Assembly: GCA_947085305.1 (NCBI GenBank)
Contig: CAMTVV010000132.1
Coordinates: 1-36,909 of the forward strand
DNA from: an uncultured Nitrospiraceae bacterium
GTDB taxonomy: Bacteria; Nitrospirota; Thermodesulfovibrionia; Thermodesulfovibrionales; UBA9159
Direction: 5' to 3'
DNA: 36,909 nt
The notes below the pieces were generated by a model. It was given only the letters and a program-made list of their open reading frames with translations, had not been told where the DNA came from and ran no database searches. Below, piece by piece: positions 10,848 to 32,553 of this stretch. Position 1 is the stretch's first letter; every line of letters begins with the position of its first letter. The position numbers and the translations under genes were made by a program.

Positions 10848-11083
10848 GGGTGGTTTCCGTTATCACAGGAGCAGGGCTATGGAACCTTCGTTCGTGGGCC
10901 ATTTCTCTTGGCGGTCTGATCGCTGCCTCCCACGGTTTTGTTCTCGCTTCACTTATTGTGTTCCTTATGTCCGGTAAAACCGTGGCATACCAGAGCATTT
11001 TGGCAATGCTCTTTCGGACAACGGTATGGATGGGGATTTTCCTTATCGCACGAAAATTCAGGAGAAGTCAATGCGGTTATTAG
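10784..11083 (+). CDS. Small hypothetical membrane protein (about 3 TM helices)
   Basis: The hydrophobic profile is the only evidence. It has a TTG start, no clear RBS, overlaps the PIN remnant tail and converges on nuoN. Confidence 0.35.
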   Translation: MGISSPIYSVLQWLVIYNVSLGVVSVITGAGLWNLRSWAISLGGLIAASHGFVLASLIVFLMSGKTVAYQSILAMLFRTTVWMGIFLIARKFRRSQCGY

Positions 11084-12501
11084 AAACTCATTACTGCTGC
11101 GCGGGCCAGCTCGATGACGCCGGAAGGAAGCACACCGATGATGAGAACAGCCAGGACCGTCACCGCCAGCGCCAGATTGGTTGAGGCTGAAGTGGAGAGA
11201 GCAATCTCTGTCCTCGGCTCCCTCATGTACATATACATCACGATCCTGAGGTAGAAGTAGGCTGATATGGCGCTGAAAATCACTGCCACAAGGGCGAGCC
11301 ATGTATACCCCGCGTCCACCGCTGCCATGAAGAGATAGAATTTCCCCACAAAACCCGCGGTGGGCGGTATCCCGGTGAGGGAGAACATGAATACGAGCAT
11401 GAGGGCCGATGTCAGGGGCTGGGATTTAGCCAGTCCTTCATAGTCGGAGATGGCCTCCCCTTTGAACCCCTCGGTCCTGAGCATAATCACCACGGCAAAG
11501 GCCCCGAGGTTCATAAAGGCGTAGATAAAGAGATAGCTCATCATGCTTGCGATGCCGTTTTCTCCGCCGGCAATGATACCGATGAGGGCATAACCGGCAT
11601 GGGCAATGGATGAATAGGCGAGCATTCTTTTGATGTTTGTCTGTGCGATGGCAAGGATATTGCCCACAGCCATGGTGAGGATGGCGATGGGGATCACTAT
11701 TGCCGCCCAGTCCATCTGGAAATTACCGAAGGCGGTGAAGAACACCCTTCCGAAGACCGCAAAACCCGCTGCCTTTGGCCCCACGGACATGAAGGCTGTG
11801 ACGGAGGTGGGCGCGCCTTCATAAACGTCGGGCGCCCACATATGAAAAGGCGCTGCCGCTATCTTGAAACCGAAGGCCACCACAAAGAGGACCACCGAAA
11901 GCATCAGCGCTGTATTGTTTGTGATGCCCTGCGCCGCAAGATACTGCGCAATGGCCTTGAGGTTCGTGGCGCCGGTAAGTCCGTATATCATAGCCATACC
12001 GTAGAGGAGAAAGGCCGAAGCAAAGGCGCCAAGGAGGAAATACTTCAGCGAGGCCTCATTGGACCTTGTGTCGTGTCTGAAAAACCCTGCAAGCACATAC
12101 AGGCTTAATGCCATCAGTTCCAGACCAAGGTAGAGAACGATGATATCCCCCGCCGATGCCATGATCATCATACCCAGGGTAGCAAAAAGCATGAGACTGT
12201 AATATTCGCCGAAGTTGACCTTCTCGATCTTTATATACTTGATGGAGATGAGTATCGTAAGCGCCAGGCTGATAAGGAAGATGAGCTTGAAAAAGCTGCT
12301 GTAGCCGTCCGCAATGTACATGCCTGAAAATACGGTCCCCGATGAATCCAGTAACGTGAACCCAACAACGCCGGCAGTGATGATACTGAGCAGGGCAGTA
12401 ATCCCCTTCCTCCTGATGAAGAGATCCAGCATCAGGACCACAAGGGCAAGGCTCGCCATAACGAGCTCAGGTATCATCGGCGTTATATCAGGCATCTGCA
12501 T
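11080..12501 (-). CDS. nuoN: NADH-quinone oxidoreductase subunit N
   Basis: Antiporter-like subunit with about 14 TM helices and typical NuoN blocks (KxAAAPFHMWAPDVYEGAPT). The start is set at the ATG 5 nt after GGAGG. The ORF extends to 12513. Confidence 0.9.
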   Translation of the reverse strand: MQMPDITPMIPELVMASLALVVLMLDLFIRRKGITALLSIITAGVVGFTLLDSSGTVFSGMYIADGYSSFFKLIFLISLALTILISIKYIKIEKVNFGEYYSLMLFATLGMMIMASAGDIIVLYLGLELMALSLYVLAGFFRHDTRSNEASLKYFLLGAFASAFLLYGMAMIYGLTGATNLKAIAQYLAAQGITNNTALMLSVVLFVVAFGFKIAAAPFHMWAPDVYEGAPTSVTAFMSVGPKAAGFAVFGRVFFTAFGNFQMDWAAIVIPIAILTMAVGNILAIAQTNIKRMLAYSSIAHAGYALIGIIAGGENGIASMMSYLFIYAFMNLGAFAVVIMLRTEGFKGEAISDYEGLAKSQPLTSALMLVFMFSLTGIPPTAGFVGKFYLFMAAVDAGYTWLALVAVIFSAISAYFYLRIVMYMYMREPRTEIALSTSASTNLALAVTVLAVLIIGVLPSGVIELARAAVMSF

Positions 12502-12558
12502 CACAACCTCCAAATGAAAGCAAGCTCTAAATCCTAATCGATTTCAAAAAAGGTTTTT

Positions 12559-12604
12559 CTCTGTGCTTTCATTCTTCTTTTCTCTGTGACCTCTGTGGCA
12601 GAGA
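12559..12604. repeat. Orphan CACAGAG-heptad repeat in the nuoM-nuoN spacer
   Basis: The minus strand reads CCACAGAGGTCACAGAG...CACAGAG. It is the same motif that brackets the GxxExxY gene. Confidence 0.65.
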
Positions 12605-12649
12605 CTTCTTGCAAGAGCCTCTTTAGCATTTCGATATTAGGGTTTGTTC

Positions 12650-14170
12650 TCATTTCAGGATTCCCATGATCTTTCCGGCAACAGCCACCTCCTGCCCTCC
12701 TGCGTTCAGCCGTTTCAGGAGATTCTCCACCGAGGGGTGCATGAAACTGAGGAACGTATCGGGATAGATGCCGATCCAGAAGACAAGGATCACCATGGGG
12801 AGAAGCGTGATGATCTCCCTCAGGTCCATCTCCTTGAGGCCGACAATCTTCTGATTCGTCTCCATAAAGAAAACCCTCTGGTACAGCCAGAGCATGTATG
12901 CCGCGCCTATTATAATTCCTGTGGCGGCAAGAACGCCTGCCCACTTGCTTGCAGCAAAGCCGCCCAGAATGATGAGAAACTCACCGATAAATCCGTTGGT
13001 GCCCGGCAGTCCGATAGATGCAAGGGTGAATACCATAAAGAACGCTGCATAGACCGGAAGGACAGCAGCGAGTCCTCCGTAGTCGCTTATCTGCCGCGAG
13101 TGAGTACGGTCATAAATGATCCCGACGGAGAGGAACAGTGCCCCTGTTACGATTCCATGATTGATCATCTGGAGGATGCTGCCCTCAAGCCCCTGTGTAT
13201 TCAGCGCAAAGATGCCCAGGGTCACAAACCCCATATGGCTTACCGAGCTGTAGGCGATGAGGCGCTTGAGGTCCGACTGCGCAAGGCATACCACCGCGCC
13301 ATAGATGATAGCGATGACCGAGAGGGTCAGCATCGGAATTGCCATTGCCTTTGCCGCATCAGGGAACAGGGGGATGCTGAATCTCAGGAAACCATAGGCG
13401 CCCATCTTGATCAGCACCGCGGCAAGGATCACGCTGCCTGCGGTGGGGGCCTCGGTATGCGCGTCAGGGAGCCATGTGTGCACCGGAAACATGGGCACCT
13501 TCACGGCAAAGGCCGCAAAGAACGCCCAGAAGAGCCAGAACTGCATCTGATAGGGATAGTTCATGTTCATCAGTTCAAGGATATTAAATGTCTTGCCTGC
13601 ATAGAAATACAGCACGATAATGCCAACAAGCATGAGCACGCTTCCCACAAGGGTAAAGAGGAAAAACTTTATGGCAGCATATATCCTGTTGGGACCGCCC
13701 CAGACCCCGATGAGGAGATACATGGGGATGAGCATCGCCTCCCAGAAGAGATAGAAGAGGAAAAAATCAAGGGATGAGAAGACGCCGATCATGGCGCCTT
13801 CCATTATCAGAATCGCGATGTAGAATTCCTTGAGCTTTGTCTTGATGGAGTTCCATGAGATCAGAACGCAGAGGATCGTGACCAGTGTGCTGAGGAGTAT
13901 GAAAAGGACGCTTATTCCGTCAACCCCCAGGAAATAGTTTATGTTCCATGCGGGAATCCACTGGTGCCTCTCGGTAAACTGCATAAGATGCGTTGTCTTG
14001 TCAAAATCAGTGAACAGGGGAATGGAGAGGATGAAGGCTGCGATGCTCACTGCCAGGGCTACCCATTTTGTCAAAGCCTCCTGACTCCTGCCGATAAGCA
14101 GGATAACAGCCGCGCCCATGAAAGGCAGAAATATCAGGGCGCTGAGAATGGGATAGCCGAGCTCGTTCAT
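12650..14170 (-). CDS. nuoM: NADH-quinone oxidoreductase subunit M
   Basis: Antiporter-like subunit (VKVPMFPVHTWLPDAHTEAPTAGSV). AGGAGG lies upstream. Confidence 0.93.
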   Translation of the reverse strand: MNELGYPILSALIFLPFMGAAVILLIGRSQEALTKWVALAVSIAAFILSIPLFTDFDKTTHLMQFTERHQWIPAWNINYFLGVDGISVLFILLSTLVTILCVLISWNSIKTKLKEFYIAILIMEGAMIGVFSSLDFFLFYLFWEAMLIPMYLLIGVWGGPNRIYAAIKFFLFTLVGSVLMLVGIIVLYFYAGKTFNILELMNMNYPYQMQFWLFWAFFAAFAVKVPMFPVHTWLPDAHTEAPTAGSVILAAVLIKMGAYGFLRFSIPLFPDAAKAMAIPMLTLSVIAIIYGAVVCLAQSDLKRLIAYSSVSHMGFVTLGIFALNTQGLEGSILQMINHGIVTGALFLSVGIIYDRTHSRQISDYGGLAAVLPVYAAFFMVFTLASIGLPGTNGFIGEFLIILGGFAASKWAGVLAATGIIIGAAYMLWLYQRVFFMETNQKIVGLKEMDLREIITLLPMVILVFWIGIYPDTFLSFMHPSVENLLKRLNAGGQEVAVAGKIMGILK

Positions 14171-14222
14171 TAATGGCGCCTCCTGTCGATCACGAAGTTT
14201 AAGCCTTCACTAAAAAATCCTT

Positions 14223-16139
14223 TTACCATAGCAACACCATGGCGATTACCATAAATGCGCCTATGGCCATCACCGCAGCATATTGATGCACCATGCCGGT
14301 CTGGAGACTTCTTAACCACGACGAGAACCTGCCGATGAGGCCCGGGACGCCGTTCACAATGCCTTCGATGATCTTTCCGTCCGTAACGCCCACAATAACG
14401 TTCTTCGCTATCCAGAACGTGGGCCTCACAATAATAAAGTCATAGAGTTCATCAATATAATATTTATTCCACAAAAGCTGATAGATAAAGCTGAACCGCT
14501 GGGAAAGGGTATCGGCTATGGCGCTCTTTCTGAGATATACGAAGGCTGCTGCAGCGATGCCGGTGAAGCCGATGATTACCGAGAGGATAATGACAGCCCA
14601 TTCTTCGGCATGCGTTCCATGGCCCTTGGCATGTCCGACAACGGGTGCGAGGAACTCTGCAAAATGATCGCCGCCGCCGAGAAGAGGCGGTATGCCTACC
14701 CAACCTGAGGCCACTGCGCCGATGCCGAGGATCAGGAGGGGAATGGTCATGATCTTTGGGGATTCGTGAAGATGGCGCTCCTGCTCGTGGGTACCCCTGA
14801 ATTTTCCATGGAACGCGAGGAAGACGATCCTGAATGAGTAGAATGCCGTCAAAAGGGCGGTTAAAGCGCCCAATGCGAATAAGATATGTCCGAGCGGTCC
14901 GGAGGCATATGCCCTCCAGAGGATCTCGTCCTTGCTGAAGAAACCGGCAAGGCCGGGAACGCCCGCAATGCTCAATGAGGCGATAAGGAACGTCCAGTAG
15001 GTCAGCGGCATATGCTTCTTAAGTCCGCCCATTTTCTGAATATCCAACCCCCCTGCCATGGCATGCATGACGCTGCCTGCCCCGAGGAACAAAAGGGCCT
15101 TGAAAAATGCATGGGTATAGAGAAGGAAAATGCCTGCGCTGTAAGCGCCGACGCCGCAGGCAAGGAACATGTATCCAAGCTGGCTCACTGTTGAGTAAGC
15201 GACGATGCGTTTGATGTCGTTCTGCACAAGGGCTATGGTCCCTGCAAAAAGAGCCGTGACCGCACCCACCACCGCAACCGTGTTCATGGCAAAAGGGGAG
15301 AGGTCGAATATGGGACTGCACCGGGCCACAAGAAACACGCCTGCGGTAACCATTGTTGCAGCATGTATCAGCGCGCTCACAGGGGTCGGACCTTCCATGG
15401 CATCCGGCAGCCAGACATGCAAGGGTATCTGGGCCGATTTCCCCACCGCGCCGCAGAAAAGGAGCAAGGCGATGAGGGTGGGGAGATCCACCTCCATGCC
15501 GAGGAAATTCACGGTCTGGCCTGCGATGGTATTCATTGCTCCGAATACCGGGGCATAATGGAGCGTGCCGAAGGTGAGAAACACCATGATCACTCCCAGC
15601 CCGAACCCGAAGTCGCCGAACCTGTTGACGATGAACGCCTTCTTCCCAGCGTCGGAGGCGGACTTCTTCTCATACCAGAAGCCGATGAGGAAATAGGAGC
15701 AGAGACCCACCGCCTCCCACCCGAAATAGAGCTGGAGAAAATTGTTCGACATGACCAGCATCAGCATCGAGAAGGTGAAGAGGCTCAGGAACGAGAAAAA
15801 CCGGTAGTATCCCTTGTCGCCGTGCATGTATCCCACGGAATAGATGTGCACAAGGGAACTTACGGTGGTAACCACGATGAGCATCACCGCGGTGAGCTGA
15901 TCAATGAGAAAACCCACCGAGACCTTGAAGGCGCCGGACGTTATCCAGGTATAGAGGTCCTCATTAATCGTTCTCCCGCCGATAACCTCAAAAAGGGTTA
16001 TCACCGAGATTACCCACGACACCACCACCGCGGGAATGGCAATCCAGTGAGCCTTATCCTTTATCAGGTTCCTGCCGAAAAGGATATTGATAAAAAATGC
16101 GGCCAGTGGGAGAAACGGTATTAAGAGATAGTTATCCAT
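14223..16139 (-). CDS. nuoL: NADH-quinone oxidoreductase subunit L
   Basis: Antiporter-like subunit with a C-terminal lateral-helix extension (GKSAQIPLHVWLPDAMEGPTPVSALIHAATMV). The start is taken at MDNYLLIPF. The 30-codon upstream extension reads through the structured repeat. Confidence 0.92.
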   Translation of the reverse strand: MDNYLLIPFLPLAAFFINILFGRNLIKDKAHWIAIPAVVVSWVISVITLFEVIGGRTINEDLYTWITSGAFKVSVGFLIDQLTAVMLIVVTTVSSLVHIYSVGYMHGDKGYYRFFSFLSLFTFSMLMLVMSNNFLQLYFGWEAVGLCSYFLIGFWYEKKSASDAGKKAFIVNRFGDFGFGLGVIMVFLTFGTLHYAPVFGAMNTIAGQTVNFLGMEVDLPTLIALLLFCGAVGKSAQIPLHVWLPDAMEGPTPVSALIHAATMVTAGVFLVARCSPIFDLSPFAMNTVAVVGAVTALFAGTIALVQNDIKRIVAYSTVSQLGYMFLACGVGAYSAGIFLLYTHAFFKALLFLGAGSVMHAMAGGLDIQKMGGLKKHMPLTYWTFLIASLSIAGVPGLAGFFSKDEILWRAYASGPLGHILFALGALTALLTAFYSFRIVFLAFHGKFRGTHEQERHLHESPKIMTIPLLILGIGAVASGWVGIPPLLGGGDHFAEFLAPVVGHAKGHGTHAEEWAVIILSVIIGFTGIAAAAFVYLRKSAIADTLSQRFSFIYQLLWNKYYIDELYDFIIVRPTFWIAKNVIVGVTDGKIIEGIVNGVPGLIGRFSSWLRSLQTGMVHQYAAVMAIGAFMVIAMVLLW

Positions 16140-16158
16140 ACTCGCTCCATTTCCCCGG

Positions 16159-16281
16159 TTGTCATTCCCGCTTGTCGGGAATCCTTCCCCAAAGGCTTTC
16201 GGAAAATCACAAAAAAAGATTCTGGACAAGCCAGAATGACAGAAACGAATTCGCTAATTTTAAATTTTGCATTTTGCATTC
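16159..16281 (+). repeat. Structured intercistronic repeat, copy B (nuoK-nuoL spacer)
   Basis: TGTCAT ... ATTCCCG-CTTGT-CGGGAAT ... ATTCTGG-ACAAG-CCAGAAT ... ATGACA, then TTTTGCATTTTGCATT. It aligns with 8201-8290. Confidence 0.75.
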
Positions 16282-16293
16282 TTGATTTATCCA

Positions 16294-16596
16294 TCATCCC
16301 TTCATCTCGTTTGCTTCATCCATATGGGCAGTCGCCTTGTTCCTGAAGAGGGCAATAATGATGCCGAGACCTATGGCTGCCTCTGCTGCAGCCACCGCTA
16401 TGATAAAGAACACAAATATCTGCCCTCTCATGTCATCCAGGTAACGGCTGAAGGAGACAAGACTTATGTTCACCGCATTGAGCATGAGCTCTATGGACAG
16501 GAACATGATGATGATGTTCCTCCGCGTCAGAAATCCTGCCACTCCCACAATAAAAACAATTGCGCTCAGCCATAAATACCACTGTAAAGGAATCAT
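16294..16596 (-). CDS. nuoK: NADH-quinone oxidoreductase subunit K
   Basis: 100 aa with 3 TM helices and the conserved membrane glutamates ([18 protein letters not shown]). Confidence 0.93.
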
Positions 16597-16597
16597 C

Positions 16598-17110
16598 CTA
16601 TCTCCTCAGCTTTTTCTTTGCCAGCACTATCGCCCCTATGATCGCCACGAGCAGCACGATTGACACCACCTCAAAGGGGTAAAGATATTCCGTGAAGAGA
16701 ACCTTTCCCAGCGCCTTTGTGTTCGTCTCTGCCTTAATCACTTCATTGGTGAAGGGGCCCTTCTGCCCGGCAACAAAGGAATCCAGGGAAACAATAATGG
16801 CCAGAAATAACCCCGCCGCTGCCATGAGTCCCAGAGGCCACGGTCCCACATATCTCCTCGCTACCGCCTCCTCCCTCAGGTTAAGGAGAAGGATGACGAA
16901 GAGAAAGAGGACAAGGATGGCGCCTGCATACACGATGACCTGGACAGCGGCAAGGAATTCCGCGTTCAATGTCACATACAGGCCCGCGATATGAAAAAAG
17001 AGAAGCAGCATGGCGATCACGCTGTGCACCGGGTTCCTCCTGGTAATCACAAGGATCGACAGGATCGTGATCGCCGCGGCAAGATAGATGAATATTCCTT
17101 CAGCGAGCAT
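16598..17110 (-). CDS. nuoJ: NADH-quinone oxidoreductase subunit J
   Basis: NuoJ-like TM protein. The start is taken at MLAEGIFIY, with GGGGGA 7 nt upstream. The longer ORF to 17233 runs inside nuoI. Confidence 0.88.
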
Positions 17111-17654
17111 TCTGTTTCCCCCTGAAAACCGCCTGGTTCCTGGGAAAACCGAAGTCATCGGCCGTAGGGTGCCAGAACTTCTTGAAGTACTCCATATTCT
17201 TATCCCACCCCATATAGTTGTCCCAGTTGGCAAGCAGCTTCTCCTTGGTCATGTAGAACGCCTCCCTGGAATAATCCGAATATTCATAGTGTTCGGTGAG
17301 GACGACCGCAGCATACGGGCAGGCCTCCACACAAAGTCCGCAGAAAACACACCTGAGCGCTTCTATTTCATACCGTTCCACGATCTTTTTGTGGTCGAGA
17401 CTGTCCGCAGTGTAAATATAAATACATTTTGAGGGGCATATGGCCGCGCAGAGGCCGCATCCCACGCATCGCGCCTCTCCGGTCTGCTGATCCCTCACAA
17501 GACCGTGGAGCCCCCTGAATCCGGGCATCGCAGGCCTTTTCTCCTTTGGATACTGCCGCGTCACAGGGCGGGTGAACATGGTTTTCAGAGTCAGGGCCAT
17601 GCCCTGGGCGATCTCTGTGAGGAACACCGTTTTTACAAGATTCTTCAATGTCAT
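17100..17654 (-). CDS. nuoI: NADH-quinone oxidoreductase subunit I (2x[4Fe-4S])
   Basis: Two motifs: CVGCGLCAAICP and CVFCGLCVEACP. It has a 4-nt overlap with nuoH. Confidence 0.93.
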   Translation of the reverse strand: MTLKNLVKTVFLTEIAQGMALTLKTMFTRPVTRQYPKEKRPAMPGFRGLHGLVRDQQTGEARCVGCGLCAAICPSKCIYIYTADSLDHKKIVERYEIEALRCVFCGLCVEACPYAAVVLTEHYEYSDYSREAFYMTKEKLLANWDNYMGWDKNMEYFKKFWHPTADDFGFPRNQAVFRGKQNAR

Positions 17655-18649
17655 GGCAACACCTTCGTAATCTTCAAGATTCCGGTAAGCACTATGTTAA
17701 ACAATGCGAGGGGGATCAGCACCTTCCATCCCAGGCTCATGAGATGGTCATAGCGGTATCTCGGCAGCGTGGCTCTTACCCAGTAATAGATGAAAATGAG
17801 GACATAGAGCTTTAAGAAAAACCAGGCAAAGGGCACATAGGGTATCGTAAACGGACCGTTCCATCCGCCGAGGAAGCATACGGTCCCGATGGAGGCCATG
17901 ATAATCATTCCGGTGTACTCTGCAACAAAGAAGAGTCCATACCTCATTCCGCTATACTCCACAAAGTACCCCGCCACCAGCTCGCTCTCGGCCTCGGGCA
18001 GGTCAAAGGGCGCCCTGTTGGTTTCTGCGATGGCGGCAATAACAAAGACCGAACAGCCGATAATCTGAGGAATCAGAAACATGCCGAAGGGATATCGTTC
18101 CTGCGCCCGGACGATATCAGAGAGATTCAGCGAACCCGCAAGCATCATCACTCCCACGAGGCTGAGTCCCAGGGCGATTTCATAGCTTATCACCTGAGCG
18201 GCAGACCGCAAGCCGCCGAGGAAAGAATATTTTGAGTTCGACGCCCATCCCGCCAGGATGATTCCGTAGGAACCGAGGGCTGACATGGCAAGGACAAAGA
18301 GCAATCCCACGTTTATATCGGCAATGGCGAATCCGTCAAAGAAGGGGATTACTGCAAGGGATGAAAGGGCCCCCACAAGAGAAATCACGGGAGCAACAAA
18401 GAATACCGGTTTATCAGACTGGGCAGGGATGATGTCTTCCTTGAAGAACAACTTGATGCCGTCTGCAATGGGCTGGAGAAGCCCGTGGGGTCCGACATTC
18501 ATGGGGCCGAGCCTCACCTGCATATGCCCTATGGTTTTCCTTTCAAAGTAAGTCGCATAGGCAACGTGCAGCATCACCGCTCCAAACACGATGAGTATCT
18601 TCGCCAGTATAATTGCAAGGTATAAAAGGGTATCTATTACGCCCGGCAT
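17651..18649 (-). CDS. nuoH: NADH-quinone oxidoreductase subunit H
   Basis: NuoH/ND1 blocks (ERKxxGHMQxRxGP, AETNRAPFDLPEAESELVAG). Confidence 0.93.
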   Translation of the reverse strand: MPGVIDTLLYLAIILAKILIVFGAVMLHVAYATYFERKTIGHMQVRLGPMNVGPHGLLQPIADGIKLFFKEDIIPAQSDKPVFFVAPVISLVGALSSLAVIPFFDGFAIADINVGLLFVLAMSALGSYGIILAGWASNSKYSFLGGLRSAAQVISYEIALGLSLVGVMMLAGSLNLSDIVRAQERYPFGMFLIPQIIGCSVFVIAAIAETNRAPFDLPEAESELVAGYFVEYSGMRYGLFFVAEYTGMIIMASIGTVCFLGGWNGPFTIPYVPFAWFFLKLYVLIFIYYWVRATLPRYRYDHLMSLGWKVLIPLALFNIVLTGILKITKVLP

Positions 18650-20986: not shown

Positions 20987-20996
20987 CTCTTCTCCA

Positions 20997-21060
20997 TTTA
21001 TGATTTCAGATTTATGACTGCTGATTTAAAAATCTGAAATCTGAAATCTACAATCATAAA
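20997..21060. repeat. Long imperfect hairpin built from ATCTGAA/TTCAGAT heptads, filling the nuoB-nuoC spacer
   Basis: The arms at 20997-21027 and 21030-21060 are largely complementary: TTTATGATT...AGATTT pairs with AAATCT...AATCATAAA. It abuts the nuoC RBS. Confidence 0.6.
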
Positions 21061-21067
21061 TCCCTTA

Positions 21068-21589: not shown

Positions 21590-21610
21590 AATGCCCTCGC
21601 TTTCGCTATA

Positions 21611-22158: not shown

Positions 22159-22164
22159 TGTGCA

Positions 22165-23769: not shown

Positions 23770-23806
23770 ACCATGTATGTCAATAAAAGGGAAAGAAGGT
23801 GAAGAC

Positions 23807-24609: not shown

Positions 24610-24941
24610 ATATTCGAGAGGTTATGGACTTGTTAGCATCGGACGTAAAAACGACAAAAGGGGATCTCGGGCGTGCCGTCACCGGGTGCTATATCAGCGA
24701 CCTTCTCTCGGACGTCATAGCGAATGCCAAAGATGGAGAGGTGTGGATTACCCTCCAGACACATCCCAACATCGTTGCAGTGGCTTCCCTTAAGAATCTT
24801 GCCGGCATCATCATAACAAATAAAAGGACTCCCGAGGAGGAGACCCTGAAAAAGGCGGAGGACGAACATATCACTGTTGCGGTAAGCCCGCTGACCACCT
24901 TTGAGGCTGGAGGTTTGCTTTATAAGCTGCTCCGATGCTGA
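24606..24941 (+). CDS. DRTGG domain protein (second copy)
   Basis: GTG start overlapping the preceding stop (GTGA). DLLSDVI...VWITLQTHPNIVAVASLKNLAGIIIT pattern. Confidence 0.75.
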   Translation: MNIREVMDLLASDVKTTKGDLGRAVTGCYISDLLSDVIANAKDGEVWITLQTHPNIVAVASLKNLAGIIITNKRTPEEETLKKAEDEHITVAVSPLTTFEAGGLLYKLLRC

Positions 24942-25678
24942 GACCCTTCCTTGCCGACCTGCATATGCACACGTGCCTTTCTCCTTGCGCTGAAATCGAC
25001 ATGACCCCCAGGGAGATCGTGACCGCATCTCTGGAAAGGAGACTGAACCTCATCGCCATAACAGACCATAACTCCGCAGAGAACGTTGAGGCCGCACAGA
25101 AGGCGGCGGAAGGGACAGGTCTTGTAGTCCTGGCGGGGATGGAGGTCGCCTCCTCCGAGGAAGTGCATATCCTCGCGCTCTTTGAGAGCCCTGATGATGC
25201 AAAGGCATTACAGGACATTGTCCAGGAGAACCTGCCCTCCGGAGAAAACGATGAACGATTGTACGGGCGACAGATCATTGTAAATGAGAAAAACGAAGTC
25301 ATGGGATTTAACCGGAGGCTGCTGATCGCAGCGACAAATCTTACCGCGCATACCCTCCTGGATTTCATCAAATCTCTGGGCGGCATCTCCATTGCAAGCC
25401 ATGTGGACCGTGAAGCCTTCAGTGTTGTCTCTCAGCTTGGTTTCATCCCCGAAGATCTTTGCTTTGATGCCCTCGAGCTCTCTCCGCGTATCAGCAGGAA
25501 TGAAGCGGAAACCGCCTTTCAGGGGCTGAAGAGTTTTCCCTGGGTTTCTTTTTCCGACGCCCATTACGTGAAAGACATCGGCAGAAGGATCACAACGTTT
25601 ACCATGAGGGAACCATCCCTGCACGAGATGCGTCAGGCGTTCAAGAATGTGGATGGCCGCACGCTCTCCTGGGATTGA
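24935..25678 (+). CDS. PHP (polymerase/histidinol phosphatase) domain metal-dependent phosphoesterase
   Basis: ADLHMHTCLSPCAE and AITDHNS motifs, and a later HxD/H-rich set (IASHVDRE, FSDAH). It overlaps the upstream gene by 7 nt. Confidence 0.85.
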   Translation: MLRPFLADLHMHTCLSPCAEIDMTPREIVTASLERRLNLIAITDHNSAENVEAAQKAAEGTGLVVLAGMEVASSEEVHILALFESPDDAKALQDIVQENLPSGENDERLYGRQIIVNEKNEVMGFNRRLLIAATNLTAHTLLDFIKSLGGISIASHVDREAFSVVSQLGFIPEDLCFDALELSPRISRNEAETAFQGLKSFPWVSFSDAHYVKDIGRRITTFTMREPSLHEMRQAFKNVDGRTLSWD

Positions 25679-25682
25679 CGGA

Positions 25683-26216
25683 ATGGAAGACTTATCCCTG
25701 CATATCCTCGATATTGCGGAAAACTCAGTTGCTGCCGGGGCAGACAGGGTTGAGATCACCGTGGATGAAGATACAAAAAACGATCTCCTCACCCTCGAGA
25801 TAAGGGACAATGGAAGGGGGATGGATAAAGAGACAATACAGAAGGTGACCGATCCTTTTTTCACCACCAGGACTGTAAGAAGGGTTGGCCTTGGCTTGCC
25901 GTTCCTCAAGCAGGCAGCGGAAGAATGTGAGGGGCGCTTTTCCATGGCATCGGAAAAGGGAAAGGGCGCCATTGTCTCGGTGAGTTTCAGGAGCAGCCAC
26001 ATAGACAGAAAACCCCTTGGCGACATCGGAGCCACCATTATGGTGCTGCTAGCGGGTAACCCAGGGGTTGATGTTCTCTTCACCTATAAAAAAGATGGCT
26101 ACACGTACTGGATGGACACCCGGGTGATCAGGAAAGAGCTGGAAGAGGTCCCGATAAATTCACCGGAAGTGTTGAAGCTCATACGGAAAGATATTGACAG
26201 GGGGCTGAAAGGATGA
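25683..26216 (+). CDS. Orphan GHKL/HATPase_c ATP-binding protein (no HisKA, no sensor domain)
   Basis: N-box HILDIAENSVAAGA, G1 DNGRGM, G2 GLGLPF. The start is at MEDLSLH, 4 nt after the PHP stop. Confidence 0.8.
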   Translation: MEDLSLHILDIAENSVAAGADRVEITVDEDTKNDLLTLEIRDNGRGMDKETIQKVTDPFFTTRTVRRVGLGLPFLKQAAEECEGRFSMASEKGKGAIVSVSFRSSHIDRKPLGDIGATIMVLLAGNPGVDVLFTYKKDGYTYWMDTRVIRKELEEVPINSPEVLKLIRKDIDRGLKG

Positions 26217-26335: not shown

Positions 26336-26713
26336 ATGAGCAAAACGAAGATCCTTGTGATCGATGACGAAGAGATCGTACGAATTAGTTGCAGGAAATG
26401 TTTAGCGCCTGAAGGATATGAGGTGGACGTCGCCGCAAATGGCGCCGACGGGCTGAGGCTGACCCGGGAAAAACATTATGCCCTCATTCTCACGGACCTG
26501 AAGATGCCCGATATGGACGGCATGGAATTCCTCATGACCATGAAGGAGATGCAGCCTGAAGCAAAGGTGATCATGATAACCGGGTATAGCACCGTGGAGC
26601 ATGCTGAAGAGGCGACGCGCCTGGGGGCGTACAACTATATCGAAAAACCCTTCACGCCGGATACCCTCATCGCTGCGGTGAGAGAGGCGCTCCATGACAT
26701 AAAGAAAACATAA
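26336..26713 (+). CDS. Stand-alone response-regulator receiver (CheY-like)
   Basis: LVIDDEE, LILTDLKMPDMDG, IMITGY and EKPF. All phospho-acceptor pocket residues are present. GGGAGG RBS. Confidence 0.9.
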   Translation: MSKTKILVIDDEEIVRISCRKCLAPEGYEVDVAANGADGLRLTREKHYALILTDLKMPDMDGMEFLMTMKEMQPEAKVIMITGYSTVEHAEEATRLGAYNYIEKPFTPDTLIAAVREALHDIKKT

Positions 26714-26788: not shown

Positions 26789-26818
26789 TTGATAAAGAAC
26801 AGATTATTTATTTATTAT
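26789..26818 (+). promoter_or_regulatory. Putative sigma-70 promoter for the NuoEFG-like operon (TTGATA-N18-TATTAT)
   Basis: The hexamers lie in an AT-rich 137-bp spacer, 33 nt upstream of the ATG at 26851 (RBS AAGGAGGGG). Confidence 0.35.
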
Positions 26819-26850: not shown

Positions 26851-27714
26851 ATGGCAGGCAGAATACTCGTTGTGGACGATGAACCTGTTGTTGTCAAGAG
26901 CTGTGAACGCATCCTGACTCCGGAAGGGTATGCTGTTGAAAGCGCGTTAAACGGCGTTGAAGCCATTGCCAAACTCGGCGGGGACAGCTTTGATCTTGTG
27001 ATTACCGACCTGAAGATGCCTGATATCGACGGTCTCGAACTTATCCGGTGGATAAGGAATTCCAGGCCTGACACAGGTATCGTGGTCATCACCGGCTTCC
27101 CATCCCAGGAAAGTATCAAAGAAGCCCTCAGCTTAAGGATCCTTGATTATCTTCCCAAGCCTTTTTCCCCTGCCCTCCTTATCGAGATCACCCAGAGAGC
27201 CCTGGAATACAAAAAAGCGGGACGGGCCGCCGAGACTCCCCCGACCGAAGAGTATACTGAGGAGATGGCGAGAGAACTCGATTCCATTATAAAGAAATAC
27301 AGGAAAAAGCCGGGCAGTCTCATCCCCGTGCTTCAGGAGGCCCAGGAGATCATCGGCTTCCTGCCTCCTTCCGTGCAGAGACATATAGCGAAGGGACTGA
27401 AACTTCCGGTGAGCGAAGTGCATGGGGTTGTGTCGTTCTACTCCTTCTTCACCATGAAGCCGAAGGGAAAACACAATATCCGCGTTTGCCTCGGAACGGC
27501 GTGCTATGTAAAGGGTGCTGAGGAGATCGTGAAGAAATTAAGTGAAGGGCTTGCCATCAGTGTGGGGGGAATCACCGAAGACAAGAAGTTCTCCCTCGAA
27601 ACTGTGCGGTGCCTCGGCGCATGCGGATTGGCGCCGGTGGTTGTTGTGGACAAGGATTATCATGGCTCTCTGAACGCAGTCAACGCGCATGAATTGCTGA
27701 AAGACTATGAATAG
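26851..27714 (+). CDS. Receiver domain fused to NuoE/HydC-type thioredoxin-like [2Fe-2S] subunit
   Basis: Residues 1-120 are a receiver (LVVDDEP, LVITDLKMPDIDG, VVITGF, PKPF). Residues about 135-287 are NuoE-like (IPVLQEAQEIIGFLP, VCLGTAC = Cx4C, RCLGAC = Cx3C). Confidence 0.9.
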   Translation: MAGRILVVDDEPVVVKSCERILTPEGYAVESALNGVEAIAKLGGDSFDLVITDLKMPDIDGLELIRWIRNSRPDTGIVVITGFPSQESIKEALSLRILDYLPKPFSPALLIEITQRALEYKKAGRAAETPPTEEYTEEMARELDSIIKKYRKKPGSLIPVLQEAQEIIGFLPPSVQRHIAKGLKLPVSEVHGVVSFYSFFTMKPKGKHNIRVCLGTACYVKGAEEIVKKLSEGLAISVGGITEDKKFSLETVRCLGACGLAPVVVVDKDYHGSLNAVNAHELLKDYE

Positions 27715-27723: not shown

Positions 27724-28107
27724 ATGGGCAGATTGACCATAGAAGATCTTAAGAGAATCAAGGAGGACCACAAGGCAATGCTCACCCTGAGAGAGGGCGG
27801 CTACCGGGCAAAGGTCACGGTCCACATGGGAACCTGCGGCATCGCTGCGGGGGCAAGGAAGGTGATGGAGGCATTGCTTGATGAGATAAACACAAATAAG
27901 GTGGTGGATGTGATCGCGACTACTTCGGGATGCGCCGGGCTCTGCAGCAAGGAACCCATGGCCACTGTCGATATTATCAATGAAGCCCCTGTAAAATATG
28001 TGGAGCTCAATGAAGAAAAGATTCGGAAAATATTCACAGAACATGTTCTGAACGGCCGGATTGTTCAGGACTCTGCCCTTGTCATGGGCAGTGAAACAGC
28101 ATATTAA
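27724..28107 (+). CDS. Small thioredoxin-like [2Fe-2S] ferredoxin (HydD/HndB-like)
   Basis: VTVHMGTCGIAAGA and TSGCAGLCSKEP. The whole protein has only three Cys. Confidence 0.8.
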   Translation: MGRLTIEDLKRIKEDHKAMLTLREGGYRAKVTVHMGTCGIAAGARKVMEALLDEINTNKVVDVIATTSGCAGLCSKEPMATVDIINEAPVKYVELNEEKIRKIFTEHVLNGRIVQDSALVMGSETAY

Positions 28108-28189: not shown

Positions 28190-30073
28190 ATGGAACAGTA
28201 CCGCGCCAGTGTCATGTTGTGTGGAGGCACCGGCTGTATCGCCGGCGGCAGTCTGAAGCTCAAGAACGCTCTTGATGAAGAGCTTAAGAATAGAGGTCTC
28301 GACAATGAGATAAACGTAGTTCTCACAGGCTGTAACGGCTTCTGCGCAGAGGGTCCTGTTATGACGGTCTATCCGGAAGATATCTTTTACGAAAAGGTTA
28401 CAGTCAAAGATGTTCCCCTTATCGTGGAGGAACATTTCATAAAGGGAAGGCCTGTGGAACGGCTTATGTACAAGGAGCCGGTGAAGAAGCAGATCATCCC
28501 GTTAATGAAGGATATTCCGTTCTTCAGCCTTCAGGTTCTCAGGGCATTGAGGAACAAAGGACTTGTGGATGCGGAGAAGATAGAGGACTACATTGCCCGG
28601 GACGGGTATCAGGCAGCGGCAAAGGCCCTGACCGAGATGACCCCGGAACAGGTGATCGACGAGTTGAAGAGATCCGGGCTCCGGGGAAGGGGAGGCGCAG
28701 GCTTCCCTACAGGGTTGAAGTGGGAGTTGTGTGCAAAGGTGAAGGGAGACCAGAAATTTATCCTCTGCAATGGTGATGAAGGAGACCCGGGCGCATTCAT
28801 GGACAGAAGCATCATGGAGGCGGACCCCCACGTTGTTCTTGAGGGAATGATCATCGGCGCAAAGGCCATCGCAGCGAATAAAGGATATATTTATGTGAGG
28901 GCTGAGTATCCCCTTGCCGTTCACCGTCTGCAGCTCGCCATAGACCAGGCAAAAGAATACGGTCTCCTGGGCGACAACATCCTGGGCGCTGGTTTCAATC
29001 TCGATATCGAGATCTATCTGGGCGCGGGCGCGTTTGTCTGCGGTGAGGAAACAGCGCTGATGCGGTCCATCGAGGGGAAACGGGGAATGCCGAGACCGAG
29101 GCCGCCCTTCCCTGCCCAGAAGGGACTCTGGGACAAGCCTTCAGTCCTGAACAACGTCGAAACCTATGCAAATATCCCCCAAATAATACTGAACGGCGCT
29201 GACTGGTACAGAAGCCTCGGAACAGAAAAATCCACCGGCACAAAGGTCTTTGCCCTGAGCGGCGCCATCAACAACATCGGATTGATCGAGGTGCCCATGG
29301 GCATCCCTCTCAGAAAGATCATTTATGACATCGGGGGCGGAATCCCTAACAAGAGGAAATTCAAGGCTGTCCAGTTGGGAGGACCTTCCGGAGGCTGCAT
29401 TCCCGAGCATCTCCTTGATACCCCGGTGACCTATGAAGATATTGTCCAGACAGGCGCAATTGTGGGCTCCGGCGGAATGGTCGTTATGAATGACCTGAAC
29501 TGCATGGTGAGTGTCGCAAAATTCTTCCTTGAGTTCACTGCCGAGGAATCATGCGGCAAATGCCCTCCCTGCAGGATCGGCACCACGGTGATGCTTGATC
29601 TCCTCACGAAGATAACTGAGGGAAAGGGAAACGAGGGCGATATTGAACTCCTCGGGGATATGTCTCTCGACATAATCGCCACTTCCCTCTGCGGCCTTGG
29701 GCAGACCGCGCCCAACCCTGTCCTGACAACGATAAAATATTTCAGGGATGAGTATGAGTCCCACATTAATGAAAAATGGTGCAAGACCGGTGTCTGCAAG
29801 GACCTCTGCACATTCTATATCGATGAAGAGAAGTGCAAGGCGTGCGGGCAGTGCAAGAAGGTATGTCCCCAGAGTGCGATTTCCGGGGAGAAGAAGGTGC
29901 CTCACCGTATCGATCAGCCCCTCTGCATCCAGTGCAGGTCATGCTACGAGGTCTGCAAGTTCGATTCGGTGAAGATCGGTCCCCTGAGCATGCGTGAGAC
30001 CCTCAGGAACCTCCCTGACCAGGAGGCGCTGAGTAACAAGCAGGTCGAGGCGCTTGCGGGAAAGGAGGAATAA
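28190..30073 (+). CDS. NuoF-like NADH/FMN subunit of the HydB/HndC type (extra N-terminal 2Fe-2S and C-terminal 2x[4Fe-4S] domains)
   Basis: N-terminal LCGGTGC...GCNGFC. FMN/NADH motifs GRGGAGFPTGLKW and GDEGDPGAF. N3-type ESCGKCPPCR...SLCGLG. C-terminal CKACGQCKKVCP and CIQCRSCYEVC. Confidence 0.92.
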   Translation: MEQYRASVMLCGGTGCIAGGSLKLKNALDEELKNRGLDNEINVVLTGCNGFCAEGPVMTVYPEDIFYEKVTVKDVPLIVEEHFIKGRPVERLMYKEPVKKQIIPLMKDIPFFSLQVLRALRNKGLVDAEKIEDYIARDGYQAAAKALTEMTPEQVIDELKRSGLRGRGGAGFPTGLKWELCAKVKGDQKFILCNGDEGDPGAFMDRSIMEADPHVVLEGMIIGAKAIAANKGYIYVRAEYPLAVHRLQLAIDQAKEYGLLGDNILGAGFNLDIEIYLGAGAFVCGEETALMRSIEGKRGMPRPRPPFPAQKGLWDKPSVLNNVETYANIPQIILNGADWYRSLGTEKSTGTKVFALSGAINNIGLIEVPMGIPLRKIIYDIGGGIPNKRKFKAVQLGGPSGGCIPEHLLDTPVTYEDIVQTGAIVGSGGMVVMNDLNCMVSVAKFFLEFTAEESCGKCPPCRIGTTVMLDLLTKITEGKGNEGDIELLGDMSLDIIATSLCGLGQTAPNPVLTTIKYFRDEYESHINEKWCKTGVCKDLCTFYIDEEKCKACGQCKKVCPQSAISGEKKVPHRIDQPLCIQCRSCYEVCKFDSVKIGPLSMRETLRNLPDQEALSNKQVEALAGKEE

Positions 30074-30078
30074 GAAAA

Positions 30079-32553
30079 ATGATAGAACTTAAGATAAATG
30101 GAAAAACAGTAAAGGTTGAAGCGGGAAGCACAATCCTCCAGGCTGCCAGGGAAAGCGACATCTATATTCCGAACCTCTGTTATGACAAGAGGCTCAGACC
30201 TTATGGCGGCTGCAGGCTTTGCATCGTGGAAGTGGAAGGACAGAAAAGGCTTTTTGCCGCCTGTTCCACCCCTGCCGAGAACGGCATGATAGTGCAAACG
30301 GAAACACCGAAACTTCATAAGGCGAGGAAGACCGTTCTCGAATTCCTGCTCATACACCACCCCCTCGACTGTCCGATCTGCGACAAGGCCGGGGAATGTC
30401 AGCTCCAGGACCTTGCATTCAAATACGGGCCTTCAGAGTCAAGGTTTGTCGGAGAGAGAAAACACGAGCCTGAAAGCATTGCCGCACCCCTTGTGGAAAG
30501 AAACCCTAACAGGTGTATCCTTTGCGGCAAGTGCGTAAGGGTTTGCTACGATCATCAGGGCGTCGGCGCCATAAACCTTCTCGGCAGGGGCTTCAAATCG
30601 AAGATAAGTCCCGCCTTTGAGGAAACCCTTGACTGCGAATTCTGCGGCCAGTGCATCGACGCATGCCCCGTGGGCGCTCTGGGAAGCAAACCCTATCGGT
30701 TCAGGTCAAGGGTATGGTTCCTCGATGAAAAGGCAATCGCCTGCCCGTACTGCGGCTGCGGCTGCACTACAAACCTCGGCCTTAGGGACGGCAGGATTGT
30801 ACGGGCAAGAGGGAAACAGGGTATCGGAATAAACGATGGAGACCTCTGCAGCAGGGGCAGGTTCGGGTTCGATTACATCTATTCCGAAAACAGATTGACC
30901 ACTCCCATGATCAGAAAGAACGGAACTCTGGTTAAGGCAACCTGGGAAGAGGTGCTTGAGTATATCGCAAAGAGCCTCCAGTCCATAAAAGAGAAATACG
31001 GCCCCTCGGGCATCGGCGCCATAGGCTCACAGAGGTGCACCATGGAAGACAATTACATGCTGCAGCGCTTCATGAGGGAGGTCATCGGAACAGATAACAT
31101 CGATTCAGCAGCCCGGTTCGGGTATGCAAAGGCACAAAAGGCAATGGAAATGGCCTTTGGTATTGACTTCCACCCGATCCGGTGGGATGCTCCGCTGAAC
31201 GCTGACTTTATCCTGGTAGTGGAATCAGATATCACTTCCACCCTGCCTGTGTGGGGGCTTAATTTTATCAAGGCGAGGAACAATGGCGCCCAGCTTGTTG
31301 TTGCAGACCCGAAGGAGACAAAGCTTGCGCGGAACAGCTCCTCATGGCTCCAGATTAAACCCGGCTCGGGCATCGCACTTCTCAACGGCATTGCAAAGGT
31401 GATCCTTGACGAAAAACTTTACGACCTGGATGAAGAAGTCCTCATGGAGGACAAAGACCTTACCATACCGAATTATGAAGCCCTGGTGAAGAGCCTTGCA
31501 GACTTTACGCCCCCGGCTGTTGCCGAACTCACCGGCCTTTCCGAAGAAGAGATCGTTCATCTGGCGAGGTCATATTCAGCTGCAAAGAACAGGCTCTTAA
31601 CCCTGACGTCAGGGGCCTCTGAAAATACAAAGGGGATGAACACCCTTCTTGCTGCAGCAAATCTTGTCCTGCTCATGGGGGATGCACCTGAGACCCTCCA
31701 GATACCTGCCGAGTATTCCAATACCCTCGGCATGTGGAAGGTCGGCGTGAGACCCCTCTCCGGAGGGAAGGACGCCCATGAAATGCTGTACCAGCCCGGC
31801 GCGGTAAAGGCCCTTTATATGATGGGAGAAAACCCCCTGGTCACCTTCAAGAATGTCTCGGCCGTAGAAAAGTCGCTGAAGGGACTTGAGTTCCTCGTGG
31901 TGCAGGATATAATCCTCACCGATACCGCAAAACTTGCCGATGTGGTCCTCCCGGCCAGCAGCTGGGGAGAAAAAGACGGCATCTTTATGTCTTCCACCGG
32001 CAATGTCCTGGAGGTCCCCAAACTCCTGCCGGAAACCGGGCAGTCAGTGCCTGACTGGAAGATATTCAGGAACCTGGCAAGGATGATGAACAGGGACCTG
32101 GGAGAAAAAGATCTTTCTGAAATCAGGGAAGCAATTATGGATCTCGTTGCAGCGGGCCCGGCAGGGGAAGAGGTTCTCTCCTTCAATCCTGTGGAGCAAA
32201 AGATCTCGGAGAAGCCGGACGAAGAGTATCCTCTTCTTCTCATCACTTCGGACCTGTTGCAGCACTCAGGCGCCCTGTCGGTTCTTTCGAAGAACCTCGG
32301 CTCGGTCGTCTCCGATGCGTACCTGCAGATAAACCCTGCTGATGCAAAGAAATACAGGATACATGATGATGGGTACGTGAAGGTAAGGTCCAGAAGGGGA
32401 GAAGTATATCTGAAGGCGATGATCTCGGATGAAATGCCTGAAGGCGCGGTATTTGCGCCGGCGCATTTCCCCCACGCCAACGTAAATGCGTTGACGCACC
32501 CTTCCCTGAACGGTGAATCGCCTGTAGACGCGGTAAAGGTTGAATTGGCATGA
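30079..32553 (+). CDS. NuoG-like Fe-S subunit with a molybdopterin-oxidoreductase fold that lacks formate-dehydrogenase catalytic residues
   Basis: N-terminal 2Fe-2S (CYDKRL..CRLC..C). His-ligated cluster HHPLDCPICDKAGEC. CILCGKCVRVC and CEFCGQCIDACP. CPYCGCGC cluster. Mo-bisPGD-like domains. Where FdhF has CARV-U-HGP, this protein has AARFGYAKA (31114-31125). Confidence 0.85.
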   Translation: MIELKINGKTVKVEAGSTILQAARESDIYIPNLCYDKRLRPYGGCRLCIVEVEGQKRLFAACSTPAENGMIVQTETPKLHKARKTVLEFLLIHHPLDCPICDKAGECQLQDLAFKYGPSESRFVGERKHEPESIAAPLVERNPNRCILCGKCVRVCYDHQGVGAINLLGRGFKSKISPAFEETLDCEFCGQCIDACPVGALGSKPYRFRSRVWFLDEKAIACPYCGCGCTTNLGLRDGRIVRARGKQGIGINDGDLCSRGRFGFDYIYSENRLTTPMIRKNGTLVKATWEEVLEYIAKSLQSIKEKYGPSGIGAIGSQRCTMEDNYMLQRFMREVIGTDNIDSAARFGYAKAQKAMEMAFGIDFHPIRWDAPLNADFILVVESDITSTLPVWGLNFIKARNNGAQLVVADPKETKLARNSSSWLQIKPGSGIALLNGIAKVILDEKLYDLDEEVLMEDKDLTIPNYEALVKSLADFTPPAVAELTGLSEEEIVHLARSYSAAKNRLLTLTSGASENTKGMNTLLAAANLVLLMGDAPETLQIPAEYSNTLGMWKVGVRPLSGGKDAHEMLYQPGAVKALYMMGENPLVTFKNVSAVEKSLKGLEFLVVQDIILTDTAKLADVVLPASSWGEKDGIFMSSTGNVLEVPKLLPETGQSVPDWKIFRNLARMMNRDLGEKDLSEIREAIMDLVAAGPAGEEVLSFNPVEQKISEKPDEEYPLLLITSDLLQHSGALSVLSKNLGSVVSDAYLQINPADAKKYRIHDDGYVKVRSRRGEVYLKAMISDEMPEGAVFAPAHFPHANVNALTHPSLNGESPVDAVKVELA

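Follow-up and report, generated by a model that had tools for sequence, protein, structure and literature searches.

The window, a 36,909-bp stretch of DNA from an uncultured Nitrospiraceae bacterium (contig CAMTVV010000132.1), carries a complex I locus split in two. A minus-strand nuo operon holds all eleven core genes intact and none of the genes for the N-module (nuoE, nuoF and nuoG), as seen in the open reading frame (ORF) listing and in the Pfam and NCBIfam scans on which all gene calls in the window are based. Facing it, a plus-strand operon encodes a sensor histidine kinase, a signalling cassette and the sole NuoE/F/G-type proteins of the window, here called BfuC, BfuB and BfuA. We propose that BfuABC is a split input module of the ‘Nuo-Bfu’ type, placed under two-component control, which would dock on the adjacent complex I and feed menaquinone. 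We hold this reading tentatively, with a confidence that falls slightly short of even.

An earlier note, made from the sequence alone, had drawn much of this layout. The scans confirm its minus-strand nuoA-D and nuoH-N without nuoE, nuoF or nuoG, the 113 bp between the start of nuoA and the kinase ATG at 22165 are exact, and the order of the facing block (kinase, five coupled signalling genes, receiver, receiver-NuoE, ferredoxin, NuoF-like and NuoG-like subunits) holds. All the genes it listed are present, but it missed a cyclic nucleotide monophosphate (cNMP)-binding-domain gene in the nuoD-nuoH gap and the extra N- and C-terminal Fe-S domains of BfuB. Its interpretation, a separately encoded and phospho-controlled N-module, is partly supported. 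The operon without nuoEFG, the phosphorylation residues kept in the fused receiver, the adjacent kinase and four nuo-linked architectures among relatives speak for a separate input module, but BfuB and BfuC are of HydBC type and not NuoEFG.

The family assignments carry this last point. The NCBIfam equivalog scores lie below cut-off for both NuoF (496 against 558.65) and nuoE_fam (131.5 against 142.4). BfuB (28190-30073, plus strand, 627 aa) comprises, according to Pfam, an N-terminal 2Fe-2S domain, the FMN/NADH 51-kDa site, an N3-type 4Fe-4S domain and a C-terminal 2x[4Fe-4S] domain. Its residues 3-594 align over the whole length with subunit B of the NiFe-Bfu hydrogenase from Acetomicrobium (7t2r_B; 837.5 bits), every cluster Cys motif included; the score is 827.6 bits with HydB of a bifurcating [FeFe]-hydrogenase (7q4v_B), as opposed to only 395 bits with Thermus Nqo1. 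On these alignments the NuoF-like protein is assigned to the BfuB/HydB type and not to the NuoF type, and we class the EFG-like genes as neither canonical nor relocated nuoEFG.

BfuC (26851-27714, plus strand) is a receiver (REC) domain (PF00072, 8e-29) fused to a NuoE/HydC-type 2Fe-2S subunit (PF01257, 2.3e-50). The best solved relatives of its NuoE domain are HydC/NfnC of bifurcating Bfu enzymes, and none of the solved BfuC homologues carries a REC domain. The fusion is nevertheless full length in 111 related loci, and its REC keeps the equivalents of CheY D12/D13/D57/T87/K109 in at least 61 of 65 relatives. Among 1.84 billion library representatives, full-length matches are confined to some twelve clusters at 50% identity. 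Between bfuC and bfuB lies a gene for a small thioredoxin-like [2Fe-2S] ferredoxin (27724-28107, plus strand; weak matches to PF01257 and NF041612).

BfuA (30079-32553, plus strand, 824 aa) is best classed, from its sequence, as an intermediate between NuoG and FdhA with a catalytically silent molybdopterin-fold domain. Its Pfam domains are Fer2_4, NADH-G_4Fe-4S_3, Fer4_Nqo3 and Molybdop_Fe4S4; it carries HHPLDCPICDKAGEC and two CxxCxxCxxxC motifs, and its clusters are a 2Fe-2S, a His-ligated 4Fe-4S, two ferredoxin-type 4Fe-4S and an N7-type 4Fe-4S cluster, in addition to the molybdopterin-fold domain. Its NCBIfam scores are just under the cut-off for NuoG (TIGR01973, 457.6 against 470.05) and far under that for the formate dehydrogenase (FDH) alpha subunit (TIGR01591, 452.7 against 666.25). 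The best solved-structure matches are to the alpha subunit of an NAD-dependent FDH, FdsA of Rhodobacter (404-408 bits). In the alignment with FdsA (6tg9_A), ‘ARFGY’ of BfuA occupies the place of the catalytic ‘ARVCH’ (Cys386-His387), that is, Gly-Tyr for Cys/Sec-His, and ‘IPAEYSNTLG’ stands at the FDH arginine motif ‘PLRGQNNVQG’, the Arg apparently being gone. The Cys/Sec-His pair, and apparently the Arg, are absent from all 120 database homologues and from all 86 copies in the first-scan loci. A canonical NuoG encoded by a related locus (L082) displays the same active-site loss (‘ARMGF’). Moreover, the N-terminal half of BfuA is 48% identical to a canonical NuoG from the same class, compared with 38% to FdsA. 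We also considered the Pfam molybdopterin-domain scores as a sign of cofactor binding and rejected them, as canonical NuoG scores equally well.

Taken together, BfuABC displays the domain set of BfuB, the type of BfuC and the A1-A5 cluster set of BfuA that define the Bfu family. The third-substrate site that completes a Bfu enzyme is missing, since Pfam scans of the operon show no third-substrate catalytic gene (hydrogenase, pterin-active or other) and BfuA has lost its active-site residues. The earlier note had counted against its own reading a grouping of these proteins with soluble HydABC/FDH-type enzymes in the company of a catalytic partner; half of this is what we find, BfuB and BfuC being of HydBC/Bfu type, yet no catalytic partner travels along.

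The second line of evidence concerns the origin of the operon without nuoEFG. Family scans detect no nuoE, nuoF or nuoG between nuoD (19239-20441, minus strand; NCBIfam TIGR01962, 581.6 against a cut-off of 459) and nuoH (17651-18649, minus strand; Pfam). The 589-bp gap is not empty and contains the cNMP-domain gene alone (18755-19210, minus strand, 151 aa; PF00027, 1.3e-19), which starts with a GTG at 19210 preceded by GAGGA. Four relatives (L083, L084, L087 and L090) possess a 15-gene operon, nuoA-B-C-D-cNMP-nuoE-nuoF-nuoG followed by nuoH to nuoN, with extension-free canonical subunits (NuoE 153-166 aa, NuoF 413-420 aa, NuoG 855-865 aa). Three others (L086, L088 and L089) show nuoABCD-cNMP-HIJKLMN as in the window, with a cNMP-domain protein 82-88% identical to ours, and again a kinase-cassette-receiver-Bfu block divergent from nuoA; the EFG-less layout recurs in L171 and L172. 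The D-cNMP-H junction is also found in two short independent read-set assemblies and in several related metagenome-assembled genomes (MAGs), and is thus not an assembly artefact. In neighbour-joining trees of NuoD and NuoI, the window and L088 are sister to operons containing nuoEFG. This grouping and the 15-gene relatives together point to a secondary loss: by comparison with them, the operon of the window is a recent nuoEFG deletion from a 15-gene, NADH-type complex I ancestor and, unlike the 11-subunit complexes of cyanobacteria and Firmicutes, is judged not to be ancestrally devoid of an N-module. A lineage with an 86%-identical cNMP-domain protein (P0141) seems to have kept a canonical nuoG (P0410), which would make the loss very recent.

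The cNMP-domain gene is itself a conserved member of the nuo operon in Thermodesulfovibrionales, always directly after nuoD (window, L083, L084, L085, L087, L090 and L144), and its protein family counts 119 homologues, all in Nitrospirota. The phosphate-binding cassette is altered with respect to CRP, with E72 replaced by I in 114 of the 119 sequences, R82 by H in all 119 and S83 by D in 112, and the protein probably binds a ligand other than cyclic AMP or cyclic GMP.

The third line of evidence is gene linkage. We collected loci around BfuA homologues (80 from species-representative genomes and 80 from metagenomes; labelled L), annotated their ORFs by BLASTP against the window proteins, and regarded as informative the 70 that show a nuo gene or at least 8 kb of upstream sequence. 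The close homologues all belong to uncultured members of the Thermodesulfovibrionales (Nitrospirota); among them are Dissulfurispira, Ca. Sulfobium and MAGs that bear the name Thermodesulfovibrio. The core (REC-)NuoE - ferredoxin - BfuB - BfuA is common to all related loci, the small ferredoxin gene being kept in most. Of the four cassette genes with the best conservation (HATPase_c_2-DRTGG-PHP-HATPase), three or more accompany it, upstream or downstream, in 44 of 162 loci. Linkage to nuo genes occurs in 11 of the 70 informative loci and takes four forms: (a) the window type (L005, L007, L027, L028 and L116); (b) the divergent nuoA|kinase junction with canonical nuoE/F kept in the nuo operon (L069, L114 and L144); (c) an insertion into the nuo operon (L082); and (d) a short operon headed by nuoD and nuoI (L031 and L032). 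Among the (b) loci, L144, which also has the cNMP gene, looks in its gene order like a direct precursor of the window layout.

In architecture (c), whose annotation was verified with Pfam, positions 1-21265 of L082 read on one strand and with short gaps nuoD-kinase-sigma-54 regulator-receiver-cassette-REC-BfuC-ferredoxin-BfuB-BfuA-canonical nuoE (177 aa)-nuoF (421 aa)-nuoG (879 aa)-nuoH-I-J-K-L; a single complex I operon would here specify two modules of NuoEFG type. Architecture (d) reads nuoD-nuoI-(149 aa)-REC-BfuC-BfuB-BfuA (L031 4699-12457, L032 4064-11788), its nuoD and nuoI being stand-alone paralogues and the 149-aa ORF unassigned. Both loci of this type have unrelated flanking genes and neither nuoB nor membrane-arm genes nearby, and their REC domain looks degenerate. 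The four architectures are scattered over the BfuA tree, and (c) and (d) cannot be inherited from (a) or (b) because their junctions differ. Furthermore, four sequences show the EFG-less state together with what lies upstream of nuoA (window, L086, L088 and L089), and in each of them the kinase-Bfu block is divergently adjacent. This 4/4 adjacency and the recurrence of linkage in several architectures suggest a direct functional tie to complex I and are, in our view, the strongest argument for it. The adjacency across relatives that the earlier note had proposed to examine is nevertheless lacking in 59 of the 70 informative loci.

The signalling genes upstream of bfuC could provide control. 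The sensor kinase (22165-23769, plus strand; HAMP-HisKA-HATPase, Pfam) has two transmembrane helices and a periplasmic domain of ~160 aa (motif and hydropathy scan), in which a CXXCH motif (CQTCH, residue 116) and a CX4CH motif (CYTASCH, residue 159), both also present in L003 and L004, suggest a haem-c redox or ligand sensor. Five translationally coupled genes follow at 23756-26216 on the plus strand, with stops and starts that overlap or abut. They encode a DRTGG protein (23756-24166), an RsbW-like HATPase_c_2 protein (24166-24609), a second DRTGG protein (24606-24941), a PHP phosphoesterase (24935-25678) and an HATPase_c protein (25647-26216; all Pfam). A stand-alone receiver (26336-26713, plus strand; PF00072, 2.4e-32) has the DD/D/T/K residues.

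In the mechanism that we infer for docking, substrates, direction of electron flow and phospho-control, the ancestral nuoABCD-cNMP-EFG-HIJKLMN operon lost nuoEFG and left the divergent Bfu module as the likely electron input. BfuB would bind NAD(H) via FMN and, by family precedent, ferredoxin via its C-terminal clusters. BfuC would act as a NuoE-like 2Fe-2S subunit bearing a phosphorylatable receiver, and BfuA would conduct electrons along five Fe-S clusters, its one-time molybdenum active site presumably being dead. With this site silent and no third-substrate site at hand, the module would have to pass its electrons to a partner. The best-supported candidate is the neighbouring complex I with its Q-module (NuoB/C/D/I), BfuA docking on NuoI, NuoCD and NuoB. 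In complex I structures, NuoG sits above two subunits of the Q-module, NuoI and NuoD, and in the NiFe-Bfu structure (PDB 7t2r) BfuABC reportedly docks on NuoB- and NuoD-like hydrogenase subunits. The module would oxidise NADH, probably together with reduced ferredoxin, and reduce menaquinone, or else run in reverse and make reduced ferredoxin. The haem-motif kinase, the stand-alone receiver, the receiver of BfuC and the DRTGG/HATPase/PHP cassette may set the activity of the module or its attachment.

Several observations weigh against docking and favour the best-surviving alternative, namely that BfuABC is a soluble three-substrate Bfu enzyme, that the EFG-less complex takes its electrons directly from ferredoxin, as has been supposed for other 11-subunit complexes, and that the adjacency reflects inherited gene order, shared redox-balance regulation or both. 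We consider this alternative plausible, if somewhat improbable. No nuo gene lies within 10 kb of the Bfu cluster in 59 of the 70 informative loci (about 84%), and in the close relatives L003 and L004 other genes lie upstream of the kinase. The cluster coexists with canonical nuoEFG in L069, L082, L114 and L144, the canonical proteins of relatives being 34-44% identical to the Bfu proteins; Bfu thus has a role independent of the loss of nuoEFG, and cannot simply be taken as the missing N-module. In addition, the junction shared by architectures (a) and (b) may be a single inherited gene order that was never selected. The genes for a rhomboid protease, a Zn-ribbon-REC protein and GroESL downstream of bfuA keep their synteny even at 54% BfuA identity (L081, L150, L156 and L161), so that inherited order devoid of functional meaning does occur in this region. 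The recurrent architectures stand on the other side: the insertion between nuoD and nuoE in L082 and the nuoD-nuoI-Bfu operons of L031 and L032 are hard to explain without a direct tie. In favour of a soluble enzyme, similar DRTGG/HATPase/PHP genes are found beside soluble HydABC operons in Firmicutes and Thermotogae, a point on which the literature search gave nothing usable, its two matches for DRTGG with hydrogenase being unrelated to the cassette of the window.

In a soluble enzyme, the third substrate would react either at an FDH-like cofactor of BfuA or at a separate protein partner. The former receives some support from the C-terminal half of BfuA, which scores higher against FDH (FdsA, 236 bits) than against NuoG (187 bits), and from a Foldseek search with its AlphaFold2 model (mean pLDDT 66.6, the N-terminal Fe-S region unresolved), which ranks FDH alpha and FdhH at the top, followed by mycobacterial NuoG, and indicates an FDH/NuoG-like fold. 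Further, fdhD (FdhD/NarQ family), which encodes an FDH-specific sulfurase and chaperone of the cofactor, is absent from the window and is found downstream of bfuA in 21 of the 162 related loci. In the distant lineages L020, L022, L044 and L075 (about 12465-13390) the two genes are immediate neighbours, while in other lineages fdhD often follows a PAS-GAF gene. This neighbourhood hints that BfuA may still bind a Mo/W cofactor and act on a substrate of its own. Alternatively, BfuA may stem from a true Fdh-Bfu ancestor, fdhD being a relic that now serves a periplasmic FDH. The Pfam scores cannot settle between relic and retained cofactor, since canonical NuoG scores as well although it carries no cofactor in known complex I. 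What speaks against a BfuA with its own chemistry is that the catalytic Cys/Sec, His and Arg are gone family-wide, exactly as in canonical NuoG.

An extension of the docking proposal would accommodate the coexistence of the two modules, although we find it rather unlikely. The Bfu module, using NADH and ferredoxin, would dock besides or instead of NuoEFG as an exchangeable input of complex I in this bacterial class, switched by phosphorylation of the BfuC receiver under the periplasmic haem-sensing kinase. Lineages with both modules, with Bfu only and with nuoD/nuoI copies would then be stages of a swap.

It is improbable, in our estimation, that a canonical nuoEFG elsewhere in the genome, in a second nuo operon or a cluster for the peripheral arm alone, supplies the N-module and that Bfu is unrelated to electron input. 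Modules have been much shuffled in this class: L085 (7079-15230) encodes a CBS protein, NuoB, a fused NuoCD (613 aa), the cNMP-domain protein, canonical NuoE-F-G and NuoI, without nuoA, nuoH or nuoJ-N, and may specify a soluble complex I arm. The close relative with P0141 and P0410 described above points in the same direction. Thermodesulfovibrio possesses two nuo operons, but both lack nuoEFG (PMC5165239). Moreover, none of the best 120 canonical-NuoG relatives could be tied to any contig of the window clade, a weak negative.

Lastly, that the four-gene cluster is an NAD-dependent FDH of FdsABG-like or Fdh-Bfu type 1 is scarcely credible and was rejected: the FdsA matches of the 824-aa protein, its Foldseek hits, the formate dehydrogenase labels that some databases give its homologues and the fdhD neighbour in relatives are outweighed by the family-wide absence of the catalytic residues and by the low TIGR01591 score.

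A precedent for the docking of BfuABC on complex I exists in prediction. Schut et al. 2022 (PMC9304861) delineated ‘Nuo-Bfu’ from gene clusters, with BfuB clades 38 and 39, of which clade 39 occurs in Planctomycetes and Nitrospirae. Like the window, this class combines HydABC-type BfuABC, with an extended NuoF and a NuoG-like BfuA with A1-A5 clusters, as the proposed input of a menaquinone-reducing, proton-pumping complex I in anaerobes. The class is a bioinformatic prediction without biochemistry, and we liken the window to it by gene content. The earlier note was not aware of any description of the arrangement, but the idea has a forerunner in Nuo-Bfu, predicted in Nitrospirae among others. 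The published Bfu genes lie in the middle of a 14-gene nuo cluster, where they replace nuoEFG, whereas those of the window form a separate divergent unit. Even in L082, where the Bfu genes are inside the nuo cluster, they stand beside canonical nuoEFG. The window further differs from Nuo-Bfu in its fresh deletion of canonical nuoEFG, in relatives that carry both canonical nuoEFG and BfuABC, in the receiver of BfuC, and in the attached kinase and five-gene signalling cassette. It looks like a split, receiver-fused, kinase-controlled variant of the predicted Nuo-Bfu that arose after nuoEFG was deleted.

Other relatives are more remote. BfuB is ~60-65% identical over its full length, with all cofactor motifs, to its counterparts in HydABC [FeFe]- and HydABCSL [NiFe]-hydrogenases (7q4v, 8a5e, 7p5h and 7t2r), BfuC is HydC-like, and the N-terminal Fe-S domains of BfuA match HydA. 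In contrast to these enzymes, the window has no H-cluster domain or NiFe subunits, BfuA ends in a silent molybdopterin-fold domain, and a REC domain is fused to BfuC. The three folds, the loss of the Mo active site as in NuoG and the His-ligated N5-type and N7-type clusters are shared with canonical NuoEFG; the sub-cut-off NuoE/F/G scores, the additional Fe-S domains of BfuB and the position of the genes outside the nuoD-nuoH gap are not. HoxEFU and cyanobacterial NDH-1 (PMC9414918) offer a parallel, as a separately encoded NuoEFG-like module is proposed to feed an 11-subunit complex I devoid of an N-module. However, Hox is part of a NiFe hydrogenase, any interaction being transient at most, and NDH-1 is ancestrally EFG-less and uses ferredoxin; the window, by contrast, lost nuoEFG recently, and no catalytic partner accompanies its module. 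With FdsABG/Fdh-Bfu the window shares the architecture of the alpha subunit and, in some relatives, the linkage to fdhD, but the catalytic triad is absent and we do not class BfuA as an FDH.

As to the wider literature, an 11-subunit Nuo without nuoEFG is reported for Thermodesulfovibrio (PMC5165239), NuoA-N is listed as complete for Ca. Sulfobium (PMC5812927), and PMC11238625 names the electron donor of 11-subunit complexes as a question still to be answered. In the literature searched, the term ‘Nuo-Bfu’ was not found beyond Schut et al. 2022, and neither was a REC-NuoE fusion or a combination of receiver domain, NuoE, NuoF and ferredoxin. The split arrangement, the cNMP gene in nuo operons and the coexistence of nuoEFG with BfuABC were not met in the literature used, in which no search dedicated to them was made.

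This lineage amounts to a clean natural experiment, with a recent deletion of nuoEFG, a Bfu module without a catalytic site 113 bp away, and sisters that have both modules or carry the Bfu genes embedded in the operon. A docking module would be the first N-module to be both separately encoded and signal-controlled; in these sulfur-cycling Nitrospirota, it would couple the oxidation of ferredoxin and NADH to proton pumping and the reduction of menaquinone. A receiver on a NuoE-type subunit would, moreover, be a rare case in which a two-component system acts directly on a respiratory enzyme and not on the transcription of its genes. A module that does not dock would still be a Bfu enzyme awaiting characterisation, acting on some third substrate. 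Follow-up is worthwhile, as some relatives are in culture and the series of related loci offers controls of its own.

The rest of the nuo operon, all on the minus strand, is ordered as follows. The nuoD-C-B-A segment (19239-22051), which encodes the Q-module and NuoA, continues from nuoD with nuoC (20438-20986; family match), nuoB (21068-21616; NCBIfam NF005012, 255.5 against a cut-off of 116) and nuoA (21680-22051; start MPTAFL... read in the sequence). The nuoH-N block (11080-18649), which encodes the membrane arm and NuoI, matches Pfam Proton_antipo_M three times, Oxidored_q2, Oxidored_q3, NADHdh and Fer4. Beyond nuoH it includes nuoI (17100-17654; NCBIfam, 153 against a cut-off of 135) and, by Pfam, nuoJ (16598-~17107), nuoK (16294-16596), nuoL (14223-16229), nuoM (12650-14170) and nuoN (11080-12513). 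The 113 bp that separate the divergent nuoA and kinase genes (22052-22164) are AT-rich. In a promoter and terminator scan, counts were not above shuffled expectation and no convincing promoter was apparent in this region; the sole notable site is promoter-like (26789-26818, 10/12 match) and lies ahead of the REC-NuoE gene.

Among the relatives, a tandem bfuB-bfuA-bfuB-bfuA behind a single REC-BfuC and ferredoxin is found in L059, L064, L079, L132 and L166, and a duplication also in L098, L151 and L159. The tandem BfuA paralogues are 50-56% identical to BfuA of the window, and both lack Cys-His. L158 (329-4844) was not counted as nuo-linked: its NuoD/B/M-like genes, ~1 kb upstream of the Bfu cluster, are 25-36% identical and probably belong to a group-4 membrane hydrogenase.

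In the window, the genes for the rhomboid protease, the Zn-ribbon-receiver protein and GroES/GroEL occupy 32579-36247 on the plus strand, downstream of bfuA. At the right edge, an Rfam Group II intron match (RF00029, 51.7 bits; 36562-36656, minus strand) overlaps a 146-aa ORF with a weak CopG-antitoxin match. Towards the other end, downstream of rpoD, genes for a DUF362 protein and then a 514-aa polyferredoxin-like protein (Fer4_5 and several Fer4) lie at 3097-5549 on the plus strand and may encode another electron-transfer pair.

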